DNA of 31,289 nt from a virus (taxonomy: Duplodnaviria > Heunggongvirae > Uroviricota > Caudoviricetes): the IMG/VR virus record IMGVR_UViG_2734482594_000020. The stretch is one strand, 5' to 3'. A program made the position numbers and the translations under genes. Of the stretch, positions 1 through 9,772 are shown one piece after another (the stretch's first letter is position 1; the number at the start of each line of letters is the position of its first letter). The notes below the pieces were generated by a model, which did no database searches, was not told where the DNA came from, and saw only the letters and a list, made by a program, of their open reading frames with translations.

Positions 1-573
1 ATGTTTTGCGAAGAAAAAGTAGCTCAAATGGCTGCATACCTACTTCTTAAGCGAGGTGGGCGCATGGCATATCTGAAATTGATGAAGTTGCTCTATCTGT
101 CTAACCGCCAGTCGATTTTGAAGCATGGCAGGATGATCGGCGAAGATAGCCTTTACTCTATGAAATTTGGACCAGTCATGTCGAATACGCTGAACTTGAT
201 TCGCGGTAAGGCTGAAGGCATTGGTGACTACTGGTACAACTTGATAGAGACGAACGGGCATAATGTATCGTTGCGTTCAGATCCGAGGGAAATGGATGCA
301 GACGAGGTCTTTGATGAATTGAGTCGTGCAGATATCCGGATTTTAGATGAAATCTATTCTCGGTATGGGCATATGAACCGATTTGATCTCGCAAATATGA
401 CGCATTTAGAAAGCGTTTGTCCAGAGTGGCACGATCCTGGCAATTCTCGTAAGCCTATAGACCTGAAAGAAATGCTGATCAGTGAGGGTAAAAGCGAGGA
501 TGAGGCTAATCGCATAATTGGCAAAATGGAAGAATCTCAGAAACTTAAGGAATTTTCTTTGCAATTATCATGA
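1..573 (+). CDS. Panacea-domain (DUF4065, GepA/SocA-like) protein, putative antitoxin-type component; N-terminus may be cut by the window edge
   Basis: 190-aa ORF with the 'KLMKLLYL' and 'FGPV' motifs I associate with COG3600/DUF4065 proteins; stop overlaps the start of the next ORF (ATGA at 570-573); region looks AT-richer than the phage backbone by eye. Confidence 0.55.
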   Translation: MFCEEKVAQMAAYLLLKRGGRMAYLKLMKLLYLSNRQSILKHGRMIGEDSLYSMKFGPVMSNTLNLIRGKAEGIGDYWYNLIETNGHNVSLRSDPREMDADEVFDELSRADIRILDEIYSRYGHMNRFDLANMTHLESVCPEWHDPGNSRKPIDLKEMLISEGKSEDEANRIIGKMEESQKLKEFSLQLS

Positions 574-989
574 CGGATTATCAGCCATACAGGAAAGGAA
601 CTGTGCTTGCCCCAACTGGGCCATGCAATCATCTTCATGTGATTTGTAATGATCCTGTTTATTACCCCGTTAACGATTGTTATTGTGTTTTAGTTGTTAA
701 TATTTCTAGTATCAAGGATGGTGTCCCCCACGATCCGTCTTGCGTCTTGAATTCTGGTGATCATCGCTTTATCAAGCATCCAAGTTATGTTGTTTACGCT
801 GAAGCTATAATTTGGCGAGTGGATAACATGGTTAGAAAGCAGCGATCGGGTGAGATTTCTGTTCATGATGATATGCCAGAAGCTACATTCAATAGAATTC
901 TGGACGGTTTTGATATCTCTGATGAAGTTACGCCAAAGAACCTTAAATTTAAAAATAAATATTGCGTATCATCTATTGATGATGAGTAA
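570..989 (+). CDS. hypothetical 139-aa protein, candidate toxin/effector partner of the Panacea-domain gene
   Basis: ORF translationally coupled (ATGA overlap) to the upstream gene; AT-rich; no family recognised by eye. Confidence 0.45.
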   Translation: MTDYQPYRKGTVLAPTGPCNHLHVICNDPVYYPVNDCYCVLVVNISSIKDGVPHDPSCVLNSGDHRFIKHPSYVVYAEAIIWRVDNMVRKQRSGEISVHDDMPEATFNRILDGFDISDEVTPKNLKFKNKYCVSSIDDE

Positions 990-1028
990 ACAACAGGAAT
1001 TGTTTCGGTATAACTTCAGGAGTTTTCT

Positions 1029-1202
1029 ATGGAAGATCAAAAAGCAACCAAGCCACAGGTTAAGTTCGACACAATGAAAGCATTCGCAGGTATGGGTGCT
1101 GCTGTTGAAGTTCTGATGAAGGCTGCTCCTAATGCGTTCACTCACGCTACTGTCTCTGGTAAAGAGCAGCAGGGTAAGCTTCGTCGTCGCAAAGCAGCAT
1201 GA
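1029..1202 (+). CDS. small hypothetical protein (57 aa)
   Basis: ATG at 1029 preceded by AGGAG (1017-1021) with a 7-nt spacer; ends TGA 1200-1202 just before a strong terminator; below the ORF-track size cut-off. Confidence 0.35.
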   Translation: MEDQKATKPQVKFDTMKAFAGMGAAVEVLMKAAPNAFTHATVSGKEQQGKLRRRKAA

Positions 1203-1221
1203 TCATAGCTGGTGCTTTTTG

Positions 1222-1250
1222 AAAACCCGCCTTTAGGCGGGTTTTTTATT
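1222..1250. terminator. bidirectional rho-independent terminator between convergent operons
   Basis: Perfect hairpin AAAACCCGCC-ttta-GGCGGGTTTT followed by a T-run on + and, via the A-run, on the minus strand; lies between the + cassette and the minus-strand early operon. Confidence 0.7.
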
Positions 1251-1531
1251 TAGTGATGTTCTTTGCCCTTCTGTTTGCTTGTTCTGACCTGTTCCCACTC
1301 GATACGTCCTTCTTCTCGTCTTTTGTCTATGTATTCCGCAAGATCCTGAATATTGATGCAACGTTTTGCTTTTTGTGATGTGCCGATGCGATATGTTGGA
1401 ACGGGCAACTTACAAGCGTTTGCTTTTGCTTCTGCCGTGGCTGGACTCATGCCAAAGTACTTTTGGCTAACTGCTGAGAGTTCAATGTTAGGGGTATTGA
1501 ATTCAGCCATCAGTAAAAACAAGGTGTTCAT
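1250..1531 (-). CDS. PrtN-family / excisionase-like small DNA-binding protein
   Basis: Start 'MNTLFLL...' matches my recollection of PrtN-family proteins; ATG at 1531 preceded by GGAGAAA on the minus strand; last gene of the early-left operon. Confidence 0.5.
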   Translation of the reverse strand: MNTLFLLMAEFNTPNIELSAVSQKYFGMSPATAEAKANACKLPVPTYRIGTSQKAKRCINIQDLAEYIDKRREEGRIEWEQVRTSKQKGKEHH

Positions 1532-1567
1532 AATTTTCTCCATCAAAACCGGCTGCACCCGGGAAAA

Positions 1568-2140
1568 TCATAATTCTGTGCTGGTGGCAGGAATTAATTT
1601 CTGCCAGATAGCGGAAACATATTTTGCCTGATGACGGGCATCAGCCAGGGCGTTGTGCCGTTCGCCATCGAAAGGCATGTCCATTTTGGGGTCGAATCCG
1701 ATGGAACGCCCAAGCGTAACGATCGTGCGTACATCGTGGTCATTCCAGTATGCCCACGGGCAGATTTGTCCTGCTCGCTCATAAGCTCCACGTAAAATTA
1801 CGTTGTCGAAGGTGGCTCCGTTACCCCAGACTTTTAAATATTTCGTATTGTCTGCGTGCCGGTTAATGAAATGATTTAGTTCTGAGAGAGCATCGCTGAT
1901 CGACAAAGTATCATCAATACAGATTGCAGCTCGTGCTTCAGGGCTTTGTTTCAACCACCACAGGATGGTATCGCCGTCAGGTGTAGCTCCTTGCTTCATA
2001 GCACTGTCTAGGCTGACAACCGCATAGAATTCTTGTCCGATGTCTCCGGTTTCTGGAGTGAAGAACACCGCGCCAATGGAAACGATCGGTGCATCCTTAT
2101 TTTTCCCCATCGTCTCAAGGTCGATCATTAAGTTGTTCAT
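1568..2140 (-). CDS. DnaQ-like (DEDDh) 3'-5' exonuclease
   Basis: 'MIDLETMG' (Exo I motif DxE), 'WGNGATFD' and 'HNALADA' (Exo III H-x4-D) motifs; strong RBS AGGAGGTG before the ATG at 2140. Confidence 0.7.
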   Translation of the reverse strand: MNNLMIDLETMGKNKDAPIVSIGAVFFTPETGDIGQEFYAVVSLDSAMKQGATPDGDTILWWLKQSPEARAAICIDDTLSISDALSELNHFINRHADNTKYLKVWGNGATFDNVILRGAYERAGQICPWAYWNDHDVRTIVTLGRSIGFDPKMDMPFDGERHNALADARHQAKYVSAIWQKLIPATSTEL

Positions 2141-2688
2141 CACTTCACCTCCTGCGGCGGTTCCGGTAGCGGCATCCAGTGAGTTGCTTGCTCAATACCA
2201 TTACCCGGCTTAATCGTTGCTTCTCCTCGCCGGAATGTGCTTCCTGTATAGCGTGCGGAGCATATTAGCGGTTCAACCAGATAGCTATCGAAATTCACCG
2301 AAATAAGCACGTTCTGGTTCTTTTCAGGCATCCGCTCACTACAGCTTATCCAACCATCCGGAGTTACCGGAGAGTTGCCATTTATATCGAAGTTTGGCTC
2401 TGCGTCCTGAACTAGGAGGATGTAACCATTCTTGGCAGTATCAAGTTCTAACGCCTCGGTGACGGTACCGAAATAGCGATTACCTAAATCCGCATCACAA
2501 GTGCTTACATCAATGGAAACCTCCATGCCTTCGATTAATTCTGGCAAGTTGTAAGTTTGGCTTACATGTTCTGCTCCCAGTGATGCCAGTGCAATCCGTG
2601 CCACTTCCATTTGTTCGCCACGGGTAAGCCCGTTATCAAGCGGATTTTTAATGAATAATTCGATACGTTCTTTGGTAATAGTGGTCAT
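2140..2688 (-). CDS. DUF551-domain phage protein
   Basis: C-terminal 'ATHWMPLPEPP' signature typical of DUF551; position in the early-left operon. Confidence 0.6.
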   Translation of the reverse strand: MTTITKERIELFIKNPLDNGLTRGEQMEVARIALASLGAEHVSQTYNLPELIEGMEVSIDVSTCDADLGNRYFGTVTEALELDTAKNGYILLVQDAEPNFDINGNSPVTPDGWISCSERMPEKNQNVLISVNFDSYLVEPLICSARYTGSTFRRGEATIKPGNGIEQATHWMPLPEPPQEVK

Positions 2689-2690
2689 AG

Positions 2691-2882
2691 CTATTTCACC
2701 TTAATCTCAACATTTCGCAGCTTTAGCTCTACTGGCAGGTCTGACTTTCCTGTTAATGCTAATGCGAGATTTTCTGGGGTAATGAGAGCGGTTATTGTTT
2801 TCCCCATCGCCAGACGAATAATCATTCGTATCTCGCTATCGTCACATGCTCCCGGTCGAACAATTGATATTTGTCCGTTCAT
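2691..2882 (-). CDS. small hypothetical protein (63 aa)
   Basis: ATG at 2882 preceded by AAGGAGA on the minus strand; fills the gap between flanking genes; the track ORF 2691..2963 is trimmed to this start. Confidence 0.4.
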   Translation of the reverse strand: MNGQISIVRPGACDDSEIRMIIRLAMGKTITALITPENLALALTGKSDLPVELKLRNVEIKVK

Positions 2883-2883
2883 C

Positions 2884-3387
2884 TCACTCTCCTTTGATAC
2901 GAATGCCCGCGGCGTGTGGCACATTAACTTCCACGATGCGCACTGTTGGTTTGTACATCTCAATCGCTGTCAGCCAGTCAGCTCCTGTCATGCGCTTTTC
3001 CGCATCGCCATTAGTCCACTGAACCGGTACACCAATAGCCTTCATCGCGATTTCTATTTCCCCGGCAATGGCGCTTTTCCCGCAACCAGTAAAACCAGAG
3101 ACAACGACAAGAACTTCACCTTTGGCTGGTTTTATTTCCCGTGCTTCCAGTTCTGCAATGCGTTTGCTTTGGGCTTCTCGTTCATCCAACAGCGCCTGCA
3201 CTACTTCAGGGTTGAAAGCAGCAGCAAGACGGCTGGCGGTATAGTTAATACCCTCGTTGCGAGCCTCAGCACGTACTTCATCGAATTTACGCACCAGATA
3301 CTCAGCATTTGTTTCATTCACTTTCAGATCTCGTGGTACACATTTCCCGCGAAGAAACCCTTCCATTTCGAAAACATTCATGCGCAT
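2884..3387 (-). CDS. hypothetical early protein with a Walker-A-like motif (VVVSGFTGCGKS)
   Basis: 167-aa ORF; start overlaps the stop of the upstream gene; GxxGxGKS after a hydrophobic strand but only about 60 residues follow. Confidence 0.5.
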   Translation of the reverse strand: MRMNVFEMEGFLRGKCVPRDLKVNETNAEYLVRKFDEVRAEARNEGINYTASRLAAAFNPEVVQALLDEREAQSKRIAELEAREIKPAKGEVLVVVSGFTGCGKSAIAGEIEIAMKAIGVPVQWTNGDAEKRMTGADWLTAIEMYKPTVRIVEVNVPHAAGIRIKGE

Positions 3388-5996: not shown

Positions 5997-6689
5997 TTAA
6001 TTGTGTCGCTTAAGGGTTTGTGACTGACTGATTAAGACCTTTCCAAAGACCATAAACCGGTGTTCGTTTTCGCTGGTAATTCCCCATTCGCGGTAAATCT
6101 GATTATCAGAAATTACCAGCAGTTTATCAGGTATCATTTGCAGTCGTTTGACGTAAATTTTATCATCAAAACCAAATACATATATACCATCCCCATCAAA
6201 CTGATTGATACTGATATCAACGAAGATGAGATCTCCTGGCTCAATGGTTGGACACATACTGTCCCCACGAACGTTGATAACTTTAATGTGATTTGCTGGT
6301 CGTCCACCAAACATCGATACAGCATTATCAGTTCTGTATTCAATGGCATGAATCACATCAATGACATCACCGCCCTGGATAAGGCCATTTCCCGCACTGG
6401 CACTGACATCCAGCATTTCAATACGGAATACATCCTTCACCTGCGCAACATCCTCACTAATACTGTTTTTACATACAGTATTACTTTTGAGGTCTGAGGT
6501 AAAGAGATCAGCAATATCAACACCTAAGCTCCTGGCAATATTACTCAGGGCTTGTTCAGTGAATTGTTTCTGCTTACCTGTTTCGAGGCGCGAGATATTC
6601 GCCGCATCCACTCCTATTGCTTCAGCGAGATCGGCGATTTTCATGTTCTTCGCCTGGCGAAGTTGTCTGACTCGATTTCCTATGTTCAT
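5997..6689 (-). CDS. CI-like repressor (HTH_XRE N-terminus, LexA-like S24 peptidase C-terminus)
   Basis: N-terminal HTH ('IADLAEAIGVDAANISRLETGK'); C-terminal 'GDSM' serine and 'VKRL' lysine of the self-cleaving S24 fold; divergent from a Cro-like gene. Confidence 0.9.
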   Translation of the reverse strand: MNIGNRVRQLRQAKNMKIADLAEAIGVDAANISRLETGKQKQFTEQALSNIARSLGVDIADLFTSDLKSNTVCKNSISEDVAQVKDVFRIEMLDVSASAGNGLIQGGDVIDVIHAIEYRTDNAVSMFGGRPANHIKVINVRGDSMCPTIEPGDLIFVDISINQFDGDGIYVFGFDDKIYVKRLQMIPDKLLVISDNQIYREWGITSENEHRFMVFGKVLISQSQTLKRHN

Positions 6690-6786: not shown

Positions 6787-7047
6787 ATGCAATCACCATT
6801 ACGGAATGTGCGTAAGGCGCACGGATTTACTTTGCAGCATGTTGCTGCGGGCGTTCAGGTCAATCCAGCGACGCTGAGTCGTATTGAAAGACTGGAACAA
6901 ATTCCATCTGTCGATCTTGCAGAACGTCTGGCCAATTTTTTTAAGGGTGAAATCAGCGAAATGCAGATTCTTTATCCGGCACGTTTTCAATCTAGCCAAA
7001 ACCAGAATGGGTTTAAACCACAGGAACAGGAGGTAAGCCGTGGGTAA
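6787..7047 (+). CDS. Cro-like HTH (XRE) regulator
   Basis: HTH 'LQHVAAGVQVNPATLSRIERLEQ'; RBS GGAGG 4 nt upstream; divergent from the repressor. Confidence 0.75.
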   Translation: MQSPLRNVRKAHGFTLQHVAAGVQVNPATLSRIERLEQIPSVDLAERLANFFKGEISEMQILYPARFQSSQNQNGFKPQEQEVSRG

Positions 7048-7591
7048 GCATCATTGGAAAGTGGAAAAACAACCTGAGTGGTACGTGAAAGCTGTCAGAA
7101 AAACTATCGCGGCATTGCCAGGGGGTTACGCTGAAGCTGCTGACTGGCTGGATGTAACAGAGAACGCTTTATTCAACCGCCTTCGTGCAGATGGCGATCA
7201 GATTTTCCCGTTGGGATGGGCAATGGTTTTACAGCGTGCTGCTGGCAATCACCACATTGCGGATGCTGTCGCACAGTCTGCTGGTGGGGTGTTTGTATCA
7301 CTTCCTGAAATTGAGGAAGTAGAGAACGCCGATATCAACCAGCGCCTGCTGGAGGTCATTGAACAGATCGGCAGTTATTCCAGACAGATTCGTTCAGCAA
7401 TTGAAGACGGTGTAGTGGAACCGCATGAGAAGACAGCAATTAATGATGAATTGTATCTGTCAATTTCGAAGCTCCAGGAGCATGCGGCACTGGTCTACAA
7501 AATTTTCTGCGCTCCAGAAAAGAGTGACGCCCGCGAGTGTGCAGCTCCGGGCGTCGTGGCGTTTTGTGTCTGTGGAGAAACTAACGCATGA
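7040..7591 (+). CDS. CII-like / YdaT-like lysogeny regulator
   Basis: GTG start with AGGAGG 6 nt upstream; the position immediately after cro is typical of the CII(CP76)/YdaT family; assignment by synteny and general resemblance only. Confidence 0.45.
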   Translation: MGKHHWKVEKQPEWYVKAVRKTIAALPGGYAEAADWLDVTENALFNRLRADGDQIFPLGWAMVLQRAAGNHHIADAVAQSAGGVFVSLPEIEEVENADINQRLLEVIEQIGSYSRQIRSAIEDGVVEPHEKTAINDELYLSISKLQEHAALVYKIFCAPEKSDARECAAPGVVAFCVCGETNA

Positions 7592-8736
7592 ACAGTTTAA
7601 CGGCAAATAACCGTTTGTCGCAACAGCTGGTGGTCAGTGTCGCTGCACACCTGTTGTTACGGCATGAATGCAGATTACCAAATCACCTGGCTGTAAGTAA
7701 CCACAGAGAACTTTACCTGACTGTGGGGGGCGAGTTGTGCAGGAACTTAACCGCTGGTTTCGTGACGGAAGAGGACTTTATGTTCATGTTATTCGTTGGG
7801 AGCCAGAAACACAGCGCGTTATCTATCTTCGCAAAGACTACCCGCATGAGTGCTTTAGTCCTTTGTGGAAATTCAGGCGTGATTTTGTTGAGTGTGAAGG
7901 ACCACCAGCACATTGATTCTGCCATTCCGGGCCGTTACACTGTTCAGGCACCTTATAAAGCGGGTGCCGGGATTGGCGTCCTGGAATTGCATACGGCGAC
8001 AATTGGCGCGTTAGCGTCTTTTTTGTTGCTACAACTCAGCTATACCCAAATTATGGTGGGCTGGGTGGGGGCACCGAAAGGTGCGCCGGTTTCCGTATGC
8101 GCCGGTTACGCCAACCCTGCTCAGTTCACCACCAGCGAAATTGGCGTTTCCGGTGGTGGAAGTTATCCATTGCATACGGAGGCTGCCATCATGGCTACGA
8201 TCCCTGCCTTAGTTCAACCTGAACTTTGCATTATTGCAGACAAAGTTGTTACTTCTTCTCTGGCTGTTGCTAGTTATTTCGGCAAACAACACAAAAACGT
8301 CATTCAAAAAATTGCGTCTCTTGAATGCTCTGCCGAATTTACTGAGCTGAATTTCCAGCTCAGTGAGTACATCGACGCATCAGGCCGCAAACTACCTTGC
8401 TATCAAATAACCCGCGACGGCTTTGCGTTTCTTGCTATGGGTTTCACGGGTAAACGTGCTGCCCAGTTCAAAGAGGCATACATCAATGCCTTTAACCAGA
8501 TGGAGAAACAGCTTTCAAAGCCCGCTGTACCGAGCGACGTTGCACATAACGCCAGCGTTCTCTGTTCCTACATTTCATCAATTCATCAGGTCTGGCTGCA
8601 GCAGCTTTATCCTATGTTGGCAAAAGCCGAATCTCCGCTGGCTGTTAGCTTATATGACTATATTAATGATGCTTCGGCGCTGGCCTGCCTCATAAATTTG
8701 TCGCTGAACCCTTCAGAGGTAAGGGGGCGCAAATGA
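7588..8736 (+). CDS. Rha/ORF6N-family phage regulatory protein (domain in residues ~202-300); start uncertain, alternative internal start at 8191
   Basis: 382-codon open frame with ATGA coupling to the upstream gene and GGAG before the ATG at 7588; the Rha-like motif 'SSLAVASYFGKQHKNVIQKI' lies after the internal ATG at 8191, which has its own GGAGG RBS. Confidence 0.5.
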   Translation: MNSLTANNRLSQQLVVSVAAHLLLRHECRLPNHLAVSNHRELYLTVGGELCRNLTAGFVTEEDFMFMLFVGSQKHSALSIFAKTTRMSALVLCGNSGVILLSVKDHQHIDSAIPGRYTVQAPYKAGAGIGVLELHTATIGALASFLLLQLSYTQIMVGWVGAPKGAPVSVCAGYANPAQFTTSEIGVSGGGSYPLHTEAAIMATIPALVQPELCIIADKVVTSSLAVASYFGKQHKNVIQKIASLECSAEFTELNFQLSEYIDASGRKLPCYQITRDGFAFLAMGFTGKRAAQFKEAYINAFNQMEKQLSKPAVPSDVAHNASVLCSYISSIHQVWLQQLYPMLAKAESPLAVSLYDYINDASALACLINLSLNPSEVRGRK

Positions 8737-8957
8737 TCCGGAATATTTTCAAACGTTTTACCAATCAGACTTTCCGTTGTCCTCGTCCGGGTCAGTGGTA
8801 CACCACGCCTGCAGGGCATGTTCTACGTGTTAGCCTGGTTGACCGTGAATGTCAGAAGGTGATTTGTGAACCGCTGGGCCGTAATTACCGCGTCAGTATG
8901 CCGCTTATAGCCTTTCGCTCCGGAAAAAACATGAAGCATCTCGGAGGTGCAGCATGA
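8733..8957 (+). CDS. small hypothetical protein (74 aa)
   Basis: ATGA overlaps at both ends couple it to the flanking genes. Confidence 0.45.
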   Translation: MIRNIFKRFTNQTFRCPRPGQWYTTPAGHVLRVSLVDRECQKVICEPLGRNYRVSMPLIAFRSGKNMKHLGGAA

Positions 8958-9772
8958 GTATGGAGCTGATGGTTAAAGCGATGAAAATTCGAGTGGGTAA
9001 TCCATTGCGAAAACTGGTTCTGATCAAGCTGGCTGATAATGCCAGCGATCAGGGTGAGTGCTGGCCCAGCTACCAGCATATTGCTGACCAGTGCGAGATT
9101 AGCAAACGTTCTGTGATGAATCATATTGCGGCCCTCTGTGAGTCCGGGCTGGTAAAAAAAGTCACCCGGAAAGGTGAAAAAGGTAACTCAAGTAATATCT
9201 ATCTTCTTCATCTTGATGGTGCAGGAGATTCACTAGGGGGTAGTGCAAATAATTCACTATCTGGTGCAGCAAATTCACCAGGTAGTGCAGGAGTTGCACC
9301 AGGGGGTAGTGCAGGAGATTCACCCAGAACCAGTCACTCTTTTGAACCAGTCAAAGAACCAGTCAATGAACCAATAGCTGTTGGTGCATCTGCTGATGAG
9401 TCTGTGCGAGTTCGTTCAAACCGACCGGAATACTCTCCGGAGTTTGAGCAGGCATGGCTGGCATACCCCAAACGTGCTGGTGGCAATTCAAAATCAGCAG
9501 CCTTCAAAGCCTGGAAAGCCCGTTTGAATGAGGGGGTAAACCCCGAAACCATGCTGGAAGGTGTGAAACGCTACTCGTGCTGGGTATCTGCGATGGGTAA
9601 CAGCGGCACACAATTTGTGAAACAGGCTGTCACGTTCTTTGGTCCGGATCGTCATTTCGAAGAATCCTGGGAAGTTCCTGCGGTATCTGCAGCCAGACGC
9701 GAGGACCCGTACTTCAAAGCCAGTTACGACAACGTGGACTACAGCCAGATCCCGGCAGGATTCAGGGGGTGA
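8954..9772 (+). CDS. replication initiator / replisome-organizer-like protein (N-terminal winged helix, low-complexity linker carrying iterons)
   Basis: N-terminal HTH resembling phage replication initiators; RBS GGAGG; five iteron-like repeats inside the linker-coding region, arranged as in lambda O/ori. Confidence 0.55.
   Translation: MSMELMVKAMKIRVGNPLRKLVLIKLADNASDQGECWPSYQHIADQCEISKRSVMNHIAALCESGLVKKVTRKGEKGNSSNIYLLHLDGAGDSLGGSANNSLSGAANSPGSAGVAPGGSAGDSPRTSHSFEPVKEPVNEPIAVGASADESVRVRSNRPEYSPEFEQAWLAYPKRAGGNSKSAAFKAWKARLNEGVNPETMLEGVKRYSCWVSAMGNSGTQFVKQAVTFFGPDRHFEESWEVPAVSAARREDPYFKASYDNVDYSQIPAGFRG
9219..9376 (+). repeat. iteron-like direct repeats (candidate origin of replication)
   Basis: Five copies of GTGCA-N5-TtCAC at 9219, 9243, 9264, 9285 and 9309 (21-24 bp spacing), then four copies of GAACCAgTCA at 9327, 9344, 9356 and 9368. 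Confidence 0.5.

Follow-up and report, generated by a model that had tools for sequence, protein, structure and literature searches.

In the DNA stretch of a Caudoviricetes virus analyzed here (IMG/VR record IMGVR_UViG_2734482594_000020; 31,289 nucleotides, in the following termed the window), a gene encoding a Rha-family regulator raises the question of where it begins. The Rha part can be read from an ATG codon at position 8191, but the same frame is open back to an ATG codon at 7588 and then comprises 382 codons. A sequence-only reading of this locus had left the choice between an unusual Rha protein with a novel N-terminal domain and an arrangement of nested small genes and regulatory repeats. 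The present analysis bore out the former genes and part of the repeats but not the novel domain, and the choice itself proved to be too narrow, as the upstream frame is kept open. We consider it probable that an RNA immunity cassette has been built into the early right operon, where it would control Rha, with the reading frame held open for the passage of ribosomes. The comparisons described below involved 80 viral loci with an 83-100% identical Rha as well as loci from Escherichia coli, P4, Gifsy-1 and other phages, and the coordinates of the features are compiled in Table 1.

Judged by its sequence, the segment 7913-8190 is a known phage RNA immunity cassette. It contains a promoter-like site, the genes of an IsrK and a C4 RNA and an intrinsic terminator, all of which had been missed by the sequence-only reading. 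The predicted C4 RNA folds into a long closing helix with two inner hairpins, the loop of hairpin 3 being located at 8090-8101, and includes a single-stranded 3' tail with the sequence ACGCCAA (8108-8114); the closing helix is followed by CCA. Across 11 alleles, 297 of 297 cells of this fold are paired and 13 of the 27 base pairs have changed on both sides; none of 500 shuffles reached the observed pairing, and slid controls were paired at only 36-48%. According to the Rfam models, the isrK and C4 pair is present at the same distance from the ATG codon of the gene in 14 out of 14 related loci, and a scan of the entire window detected neither a tRNA nor any Rfam family beyond the isrK/C4 group. 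The cassette is a mosaic hot-spot: its flanks are 97-99% identical to mEp460, compared with 70% for isrK, 62% for C4 and 48% for the target region.

The IsrK RNA comprises two 5' hairpins and the first copies of both C4 target sites, and a sub-threshold match to the Rfam family c4-a1b1 overlaps its start. A terminator scan located the stem of the intrinsic terminator at 8005-8018, followed by six T residues at 8019-8024. This hairpin is present in all 10 alleles with differing stem sequences; the alleles were folded separately, since the stems sit in different registers and a single MAFFT alignment cannot show covariation of the terminator. The IsrK transcript is predicted to start at approximately position 7948, downstream of a promoter-like site whose -35 box overlaps the stop codon of the DUF4222 gene described below. 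The promoter segment is the best-conserved piece of the region (87-97%), and the flanking RNA is variable. Its geometry is that of the isrK promoter of Gifsy-1 (TTGACA-18-TATATT, with the RNA start 7 nucleotides (nt) downstream), which occupies the homologous position, and the assignment as a promoter was made by positional homology and conservation only.

Two segments of the C4 RNA are complementary to sites that occur both in IsrK and directly upstream of the Rha start. The tail site ATTGGCGT, to which the C4 tail ACGCCAA is complementary, is found in a hairpin loop of IsrK (7972-7979) and again at 8140-8147. The loop site TTGCATACGG is located at 7987-7996 in IsrK and at 8170-8179; its complementary counterpart in C4 is CCGTATGC, a segment of the hairpin-3 loop (8093-8100). 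The second copy of the loop site overlaps the first two nucleotides of the GGAGG sequence, 12 nt upstream of the ATG codon at 8191. The neutral terms loop site and tail site are used here in place of the P1 labels a and b; the annotators of phage APSE-7 labelled the C4 loop a'.

The direct repeats listed by the sequence-only reading were all found at the positions it had assigned to them, and its suggestion of regulatory repeats holds for a part of them. The 11-mer ATTGCATACGG at 7986 and 8169, which occurs only twice in the window with 0.01 occurrences expected and is complementary to the same C4 loop segment, and the ATTGGCG copies at 7972 and 8140 belong to the C4 target sites, whereas TGCGCCGGTT at 8082 and 8098 (0.15 expected) and the remaining ATTGGCG copy at 8002 do not. 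TGCGCCGGTT was rejected as a regulatory repeat: each of its copies holds one arm of C4 hairpin 3, a stem with self-complementary CCGG. The ATTGGCG copy at 8002..8008 was likewise rejected as a functional site; it forms part of the left stem arm of the IsrK terminator, from which it could in principle pair with the C4 tail, and is probably coincidental because it is specific to this allele. Since ATTGGCG is not enriched window-wide (7 occurrences versus 6.2 expected), its frequency was left out of the evidence.

The C4 loop, the IsrK copy of its target and the copy next to the Shine-Dalgarno sequence change together in 10 alleles. Examples of such loop/target pairs are CCGTATGC with GCATACGG, CCGATAAC with GTTATCGG, CTTTGGTGA with TCACCAAAG and CATGTGCGA with TCGCACATG. 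Cognate duplexes of loop and target range from -9 to -17 kcal/mol, whereas non-cognate duplexes mostly range from -1 to -8 kcal/mol.

The frames that code for protein were recognized by counting variable sites at the first, second and third codon positions of the long frame. The counts were 17/20/19 in the spacer 7592-7736, 4/24/6 in the DUF4222 segment, 13/15/9 in the isrK segment, 14/14/14 in the C4 segment, 11/14/13 in the target region and 54/53/122 in Rha from 8191 onwards. The second position of the long frame is the third position of DUF4222, so that the third codon positions of the latter take 24 of the 34 variable sites in its segment. Upstream of 8191, the codon-position test revealed neither codon periodicity nor a third-position excess in the long frame. 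These counts indicate that amino-acid selection is limited to DUF4222 and to Rha from 8191. Synonymous-type substitutions, which the sequence-only reading had proposed to look for in an alignment of homologous loci, were thus found in the DUF4222 frame and in Rha, and none for the long frame upstream.

The 59-codon open reading frame (ORF) that overlaps the long frame, noted in the sequence-only reading for its protein-like character, is, on the evidence of its Pfam match and its third-position substitutions, an independent, real gene. It matches PF13973 (DUF4222) with 51.1 bits against a gathering threshold of 27 (E 9.5e-14) and phrog_1343 (E 1e-36), and DUF4222 is annotated by PGAP in relatives. 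The Rha domain, with its internal ATG codon and its own GGAGG sequence, was confirmed as well and is where the long frame first comes under amino-acid selection. Residues 222-307 of the 382-aa frame match PF09669 (Phage_pRha; 112.3 bits, gathering threshold 29.9, E 1.7e-32), and TIGR02681 matches in addition. The extension upstream, when searched with Pfam and NCBIfam, yielded nothing except PF10554 (Phage_ASH, 'ash family protein'; 64.1 bits, gathering threshold 26) at residues 117-212, which correspond to nucleotides 7936-8223. On P4, Phage_ASH covers residues 22-146 of Eta and hence seqA-CI-seqC (P4 locus L089, 8168..8767, minus strand). The match evidently represents the translation of the seqA/IsrK-CI/C4-target cassette, in which the variation follows RNA pairing and not codon rules. 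As a protein-selected domain, Phage_ASH was rejected, the isrK, C4 and target regions being devoid of codon periodicity. The PHROG matches over the extension are to families built on over-extended annotations.

Table 1. Positions of genes, predicted RNAs and sites in the immunity and early region of the window.
Feature	Coordinates	Strand	Remarks
LexA-like cI repressor	5997..6689	minus	
cro	6787..7047		early region, precedes ymfL
YmfL/CII(CP76)-like early gene	7040..7591	+	Pfam Phage_CP76, E 6.8e-16; named ymfL in RefSeq relatives
Long open frame in question	7588..8736	+	382 codons
DUF4222 gene, 59 aa	7737..7916	+	GTG start after GGGGGG at 7725-7730; in another frame, inside the long frame
Promoter-like site	7913..7941	+	-35 TTGATT 7913-7918, 17-nt spacer, -10 TACACT 7936-7941
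IsrK / P4-seqA-like RNA (predicted)	7948..8024	+	Rfam RF01394, 61.2 bits, gathering threshold 50
C4 (P1/P7) / CI (P4)-type antisense RNA (predicted)	8049..8136	+	Rfam RF01695, 80.7 bits, gathering threshold 45, full-length
In-frame ATG	8053..8055	+	C4 positions 5-7; equivalent of the Gifsy-1 orf45 start; would give a 228-aa product
Second target-site copies	8140..8182	+	directly upstream of the Rha start
Rha-family regulator, short product, 181 aa	8191..8736	+	GGAGG at 8178-8182; TGA overlaps the next ATG (8733)
74-aa ORF	8733..8957		downstream of Rha
O-like replication gene	8954..9772		after the 74-aa ORF

The long frame nevertheless does not appear to be an accident, being open and in phase in every operon-embedded allele, as in eta/kil of P4. 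Its ATG codon at 7588 overlaps the TGA stop codon of ymfL (7589-7591) and is preceded by GGAG at 7574-7577; in an eta-like manner, the frame traverses the DUF4222 gene, the promoter-like site, IsrK, C4 and the target sites and terminates as Rha. In this frame, the 201 codons of 7588-8190 are free of stop codons, of which the two remaining forward frames contain 12 and 5 and the three reverse-strand frames 10, 9 and 8; this agrees with the sequence-only reading, which had described the frame as open and coupled to the upstream gene. Since only 1 of 20,000 composition-preserving shuffles of this segment was open, the openness exceeds chance. Random synonymous recoding of DUF4222 left the overlapping long frame open in only 4-6% of cases.

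Among 85 related loci, 79 have retained the long frame open over approximately 200 codons. The six exceptions include L066, which is cut by the contig end, and L069, a tandem array in which the frame is open as far as the gene before it; the other four (L022, L040, L081 and L070) carry +/-1 indels in association with homopolymer runs. The sites of these indels are the G6 run that forms the Shine-Dalgarno sequence of DUF4222 (7725..7730), the T-run of the IsrK terminator (8019..8024), an A-run and a position close to the terminator where a single C is deleted. No other frame-breaking changes were seen among the related loci, and these 1-nt changes could be due to sequencing errors or slippage. 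Homologs with stops or indels upstream, which the sequence-only reading had named as an argument for a short Rha gene, hence exist in the form of these four loci, whereas the bulk of the related loci is open.

Further copies of the cassette were identified with a covariance model of our own, and 21 of the 22 instances were scored, the remaining one (L094) having no assignable downstream start. All 17 operon-embedded instances are open in the frame of the gene behind the cassette, here termed the cargo, over 88-220 codons upstream, and their C4 comprises 88 nt. Besides P4 itself and a P4-like element whose cargo is Icd-like, they include second modules from two contigs and the three tandem modules of a further one. 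Each operon-embedded long ORF, those of the tandem modules and of ST64B included, begins at an ATG codon that overlaps or abuts the stop codon of the preceding gene. The stand-alone cassettes of Gifsy-1, Stx2 phage 1717, APSE-7 and a Klebsiella phage, which served as an internal control, are intergenic, have a C4 of 84-87 nt and contain 2-3 stops in the cargo frame. When the first 10 alleles were considered, the cassette contained no stop in the cargo frame of any of them, compared with 0-5 and 2-8 stops in the other two frames. The length differences between alleles (+3, -3 and -6 nt) are all multiples of three. The 7592-7736 spacer exists in three unrelated versions that are all open and in phase, and the one in the e14 prophage of E. 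coli K-12 is 30 nt longer and still open in the same phase relative to DUF4222. Given this persistence of an open, in-phase frame among all operon-embedded alleles, both a short and a long product are plausible.

The closest parallel to this organization is provided by P4. A constitutive promoter inside the eta gene of P4 gives rise to transcripts that are terminated via the interaction of CI with seqA (Forti et al. 1999, summarised in PMC10111431). Kil is a truncated Eta, whereas full-length Eta is made only from the upstream promoter and is coupled to an alpA homologue, and translation of Eta prevents the termination (PMC10111431). The Rfam models of C4 and isrK detect relatives of CI and seqA inside genes of the 'Bro network' (PMC10111431). 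Both models match P4 on its minus strand, at 8692-8615 for isrK and at 8507-8420 for C4 (CI RNA). The P4 long ORF has MMM start codons that overlap the stop codon of ORF88, and ends as a 65-aa peptide starting at GGAGGCTGCCATCATGGCTAC. The locus in the window resembles P4 in the overlap of the upstream stop with the start of the long ORF, the place of the internal constitutive promoter (here taken by the promoter-like site), the seqA/IsrK RNA with its terminator, the CI/C4 RNA and the target at the Shine-Dalgarno sequence, all in the same order. The short gene is likewise in frame with the long ORF, and the ATG codon at 8191 shares with the kil start the EAAI-MAT context (GAGGCTGCCATCATGGCTAC). 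Unlike the 65-aa Kil/Icd-like peptide of P4, the cargo in the window is a 181-aa Rha protein, and phage_ICD_like of NCBIfam matches P4 Kil but not this protein. Moreover, the cassette of the satellite P4 follows an AlpA/Vis-like gene, whereas the one described here is located in the early operon of a lambdoid prophage after a ymfL/CII-like gene, the spacer between IsrK and C4 comprises 24 nt instead of 107 nt in P4, and the long frame additionally contains the separate DUF4222 gene in another frame.

The C4 family goes back to the immI region c4-icd-ant of P1/P7, its founding example, on which the Rfam C4 model is built (Citron & Schuster 1990, cited in PMC8201110). As in P1/P7, the C4 RNA of the window has two short segments with complementarity to sites on either side of its gene, and the downstream sites occupy the ribosome-binding site; by the same comparison, the sites would set the specificity of heteroimmunity, and the controlled function would be a regulator of the antirepressor type (P1 was compared by description). 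A C4 RNA is a stable molecule of approximately 77 nt that RNase P releases from a longer transcript, and of such processing the window shows the CCA behind the closing helix. In contrast to c4-icd-ant of P1, the window contains no Icd-like ORF, and Rha takes the position of icd, followed by the 74-aa ORF and the replication gene.

In Gifsy-1, IsrK acts in trans and activates translation of the downstream regulator anrP more than 100-fold, an ORF (orf45) is translated from a conserved AUG in the 5' end of C4, and an RNA of approximately 80 nt is processed from the read-through transcript (PMC4825925). The same study names P4 seqA and CI as structural relatives and numbers isrK from its transcription start site (PMC4825925). 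IsrK, the C4-like RNA (orf45'/STnc1160), the target at the Shine-Dalgarno sequence and the regulator of isrK-orf45-anrP recur in the window in the same order, spacing and promoter geometry. The Gifsy-1 cassette is, however, a stand-alone unit after the Q antiterminator gene with a C4 of 84 nt and three stops in the cargo frame, whereas the cassette in the window is embedded. The orf45 gene is a separate frame of 45 codons, the stop of which overlaps the anrP ATG, whereas the ATG codon at 8053 is located 138 nt upstream of 8191 and in frame with it, with no stop in between; and the ORF6N protein that forms the Gifsy-1 cargo has no sequence relationship to this Rha. An isrK and C4 pair is also present in the Hamiltonella phage APSE-7 (LR794151), where both are annotated as non-coding RNAs upstream of a Bro-network gene; that cassette differs by being stand-alone, with three stops in the cargo frame and a Bro-N cargo. 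The RNA immunity module is an established one, which occurs here with a different cargo, in a different host element and together with an embedded DUF4222 gene.

By analogy with P1, P4 and Gifsy-1, the internal promoter would be active in the lysogen and yield IsrK, and read-through would provide a precursor from which C4 is cut. C4 would then pair with the sites at the Rha ribosome-binding site and block initiation at 8191, which would probably also permit Rho-dependent termination, so that Rha and the downstream genes stay off. IsrK, which bears the same sites, could titrate C4, and the loop and site sequences that differ between alleles would determine immunity specificity. Upon induction, transcripts from the early promoter would be translated through the long frame by ribosomes handed over from ymfL at the ATGA overlap, as suggested by the pattern of open frames and by eta/kil of P4. 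Such ribosomes would cross the promoter, the terminator, the C4 gene and the targets so that neither the terminator nor C4 nor Rho would act on these transcripts; their product would be a Rha protein with an N-terminal extension. That the long frame is translated is an inference from the same pattern and the same P4 parallel.

Several points weigh against this explanation. Ribosomes on the long frame would compete with initiation at DUF4222, and therefore a single mRNA cannot support both with full efficiency. The P1 and P4 models also need a Rho-dependent terminator, which would have to be present here as well. With only 8 of 12 consensus positions matched, the promoter-like site is weak, and a sigma-70 scan of 7400-8800 returned no promoter at the threshold of the scanner. 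The frame-breaking 1-nt indels of four related loci could be real and tolerated. The zero-stop counts across alleles are not fully independent, because the alleles share ancestry and conserved blocks, and the use of the in-frame starts at 7588, 8053 and 8191 is a prediction from sequence only. Finally, co-expression of the C4-like RNA of Gifsy-1 did not produce the behaviour of a simple repressor (PMC4825925, discussion).

As a tentative generalization, which we would not rate as likely, the 600 nt might represent a sequence-indifferent 'ribosome conduit', selected for nothing but an open and in-phase reading frame, and a general rule for operon-embedded C4 cassettes, by which the principle of P4 eta is extended to lambdoid prophages; as a corollary, ymfM of E. 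coli K-12 would be a truncated remnant of the conduit frame, and the embedded DUF4222 ORF possibly the active product.

One alternative is a start of the internal-promoter product at the ATG codon at 8053. It is compatible with the cassette explanation but appears rather doubtful in itself. Translation from 8053 would run in frame into Rha, with 8191 as a secondary start. Such a start is suggested by the sequence ATGG at C4 positions 5-8, which is invariant in 11 alleles, by its position in frame with the gene, 138 or 141 nt from the gene start in every operon-embedded cassette, and by orf45 of Gifsy-1, which is translated and required for translation of anrP (PMC4825925). The family phrog_4908 also begins there. 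On the other hand, no Shine-Dalgarno sequence precedes this codon, and ATGG also belongs to the conserved closing helix and, by analogy with P1 C4, is expected at the RNase P processing site. The ATG codon at 8191, by comparison, has the strong GGAGG sequence overlapped by a target site and is homologous to the start of the 65-aa P4 kil product.

It is unlikely that only DUF4222 and Rha from 8191 are made and that the long frame is untranslated, having remained open through P4-like ancestry and RNA constraints. Such an arrangement would be in line with the lack of amino-acid constraint upstream of 8191, with the G+C-rich composition and the conserved blocks of the cassette, and with the PGAP annotation, which often consists of a shorter Rha and DUF4222. 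It does not readily account for the variable A+T-rich spacers between the downstream target sites and after the terminator, which are free of stops in every embedded allele compared with 0-8 stops in the other frames, nor for the restriction of all allelic indels to multiples of three and the three unrelated 7592-7736 spacers that are open and in phase. Furthermore, stand-alone cassettes with the same RNA folds do carry stops, and an overlap of the start with the stop of the gene before it is found in all contexts. The novel N-terminal domain considered by the sequence-only reading would mean a genuine Rha protein of 382 aa with a functional domain, 'Ash' included, in its first 200 residues. 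Such a protein is highly improbable despite the annotation of the full-length ORF in many phages, the Phage_ASH match and the several PHROG families over the extension, as a third-position excess is lacking upstream of 8191, changes in the DUF4222 segment fall on second positions of the long frame, the only domain found in the extension coincides with P4 seqA-CI-seqC and the Rfam hits and varies according to base-pairing, and the identity to E. coli K-12 is 32% for the YmfM frame versus 64% for the DUF4222 frame.

The E. coli K-12 counterpart is located in the e14 region (NC_000913.3, 1201000-1205500; L091). At the locus 2823..3181 of this segment, the ymfM gene ('cell division inhibitor', 112 aa, ATGA-coupled to ymfL) corresponds to the truncated start of the long frame, and the RNA cassette and the cargo are deleted. 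Inside ymfM, a 59-aa DUF4222 ORF is present in another frame (3002..3181; TTG start after GGAGA; Pfam E 8.6e-19), and it is this ORF and the DUF4222 protein of the window that share the 64% identity. When the text of the ymfM preprint (10.1101/2020.11.19.390815) was searched, no control that discriminates between the frames was found. The protein assignment of the K-12 division inhibitor ymfM (SfiC) therefore needs to be checked as to whether YmfM or DUF4222 is the cause of filamentation.

The window belongs to a lambdoid prophage of the e14/mEp460/SfV/ST64B type and represents its immunity and early region. Every gene junction between cro and the O-like gene (6787..9772) consists of overlapping stop and start codons: the GTG start of ymfL at 7040 lies ahead of the cro stop at 7047, and ATGA overlaps connect ymfL with the long frame (7588), the long frame with the 74-aa ORF (8733) and the latter with the O-like gene (8954). 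This chain is consistent with uninterrupted translation across ymfL and the long frame.

Among phage records, Escherichia phage PhiR47_1 comes closest (99.1% identical); in it, 7588..8736 is annotated as a single 'Rha protein'; the same annotation is found in mEp460, Stx2a_1447 and ST64B (sb41), with 84-87% identity. Matches to all or part of the locus are present in 1555 of 5426 complete E. coli genomes, and the annotation is inconsistent, being given as a 382-aa 'Rha protein', as a 296-316-aa Rha with DUF4222, or as an 'ash family protein'. No RNA gene is listed in any of the four E. coli loci inspected in RefSeq; in the APSE-7 record, by contrast, both are annotated. Read as an RNA immunity cassette with specificity alleles, at least 10 in number, the locus provides a handle on which prophages can silence each other's antirepressors, which is relevant to polylysogens such as Shiga-toxin E. 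coli. The contrast between embedded cassettes with an open frame and stand-alone cassettes with a closed one furthermore offers a simple, testable rule on translation overriding RNA-based termination or repression.

The cargo behind the cassette varies and can be Rha, ORF6N, ORF6N with P22_AR_C, Bro-N or an Icd/Kil-like protein (examples include L090 1201..1284 of Gifsy-1, L092, L093 and L095), while an e14-like prophage carries an unknown 77-aa protein (L086, 2104..2337). Several cargoes begin alike with MAT(I/V/T)P and are preceded by the same GAGGCTGCCATC, and the boundary of the cassette is therefore placed a few codons inside the cargo gene. Tandem isrK-C4-Rha modules occur in L069 (IMG/VR UViG_2778261590_000001, 1..3267) and in L070 (UViG_2534682157_000011). 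The array of three tandem modules comprises long ORFs at 187..1356, 1353..2204 and 2201..3046, each ATGA-coupled to the previous gene. The third module is a recombinant that combines a C4 loop of the ST64B type with a target of the mEp460 type at the Shine-Dalgarno sequence, so that no C4 in this locus matches its gene.

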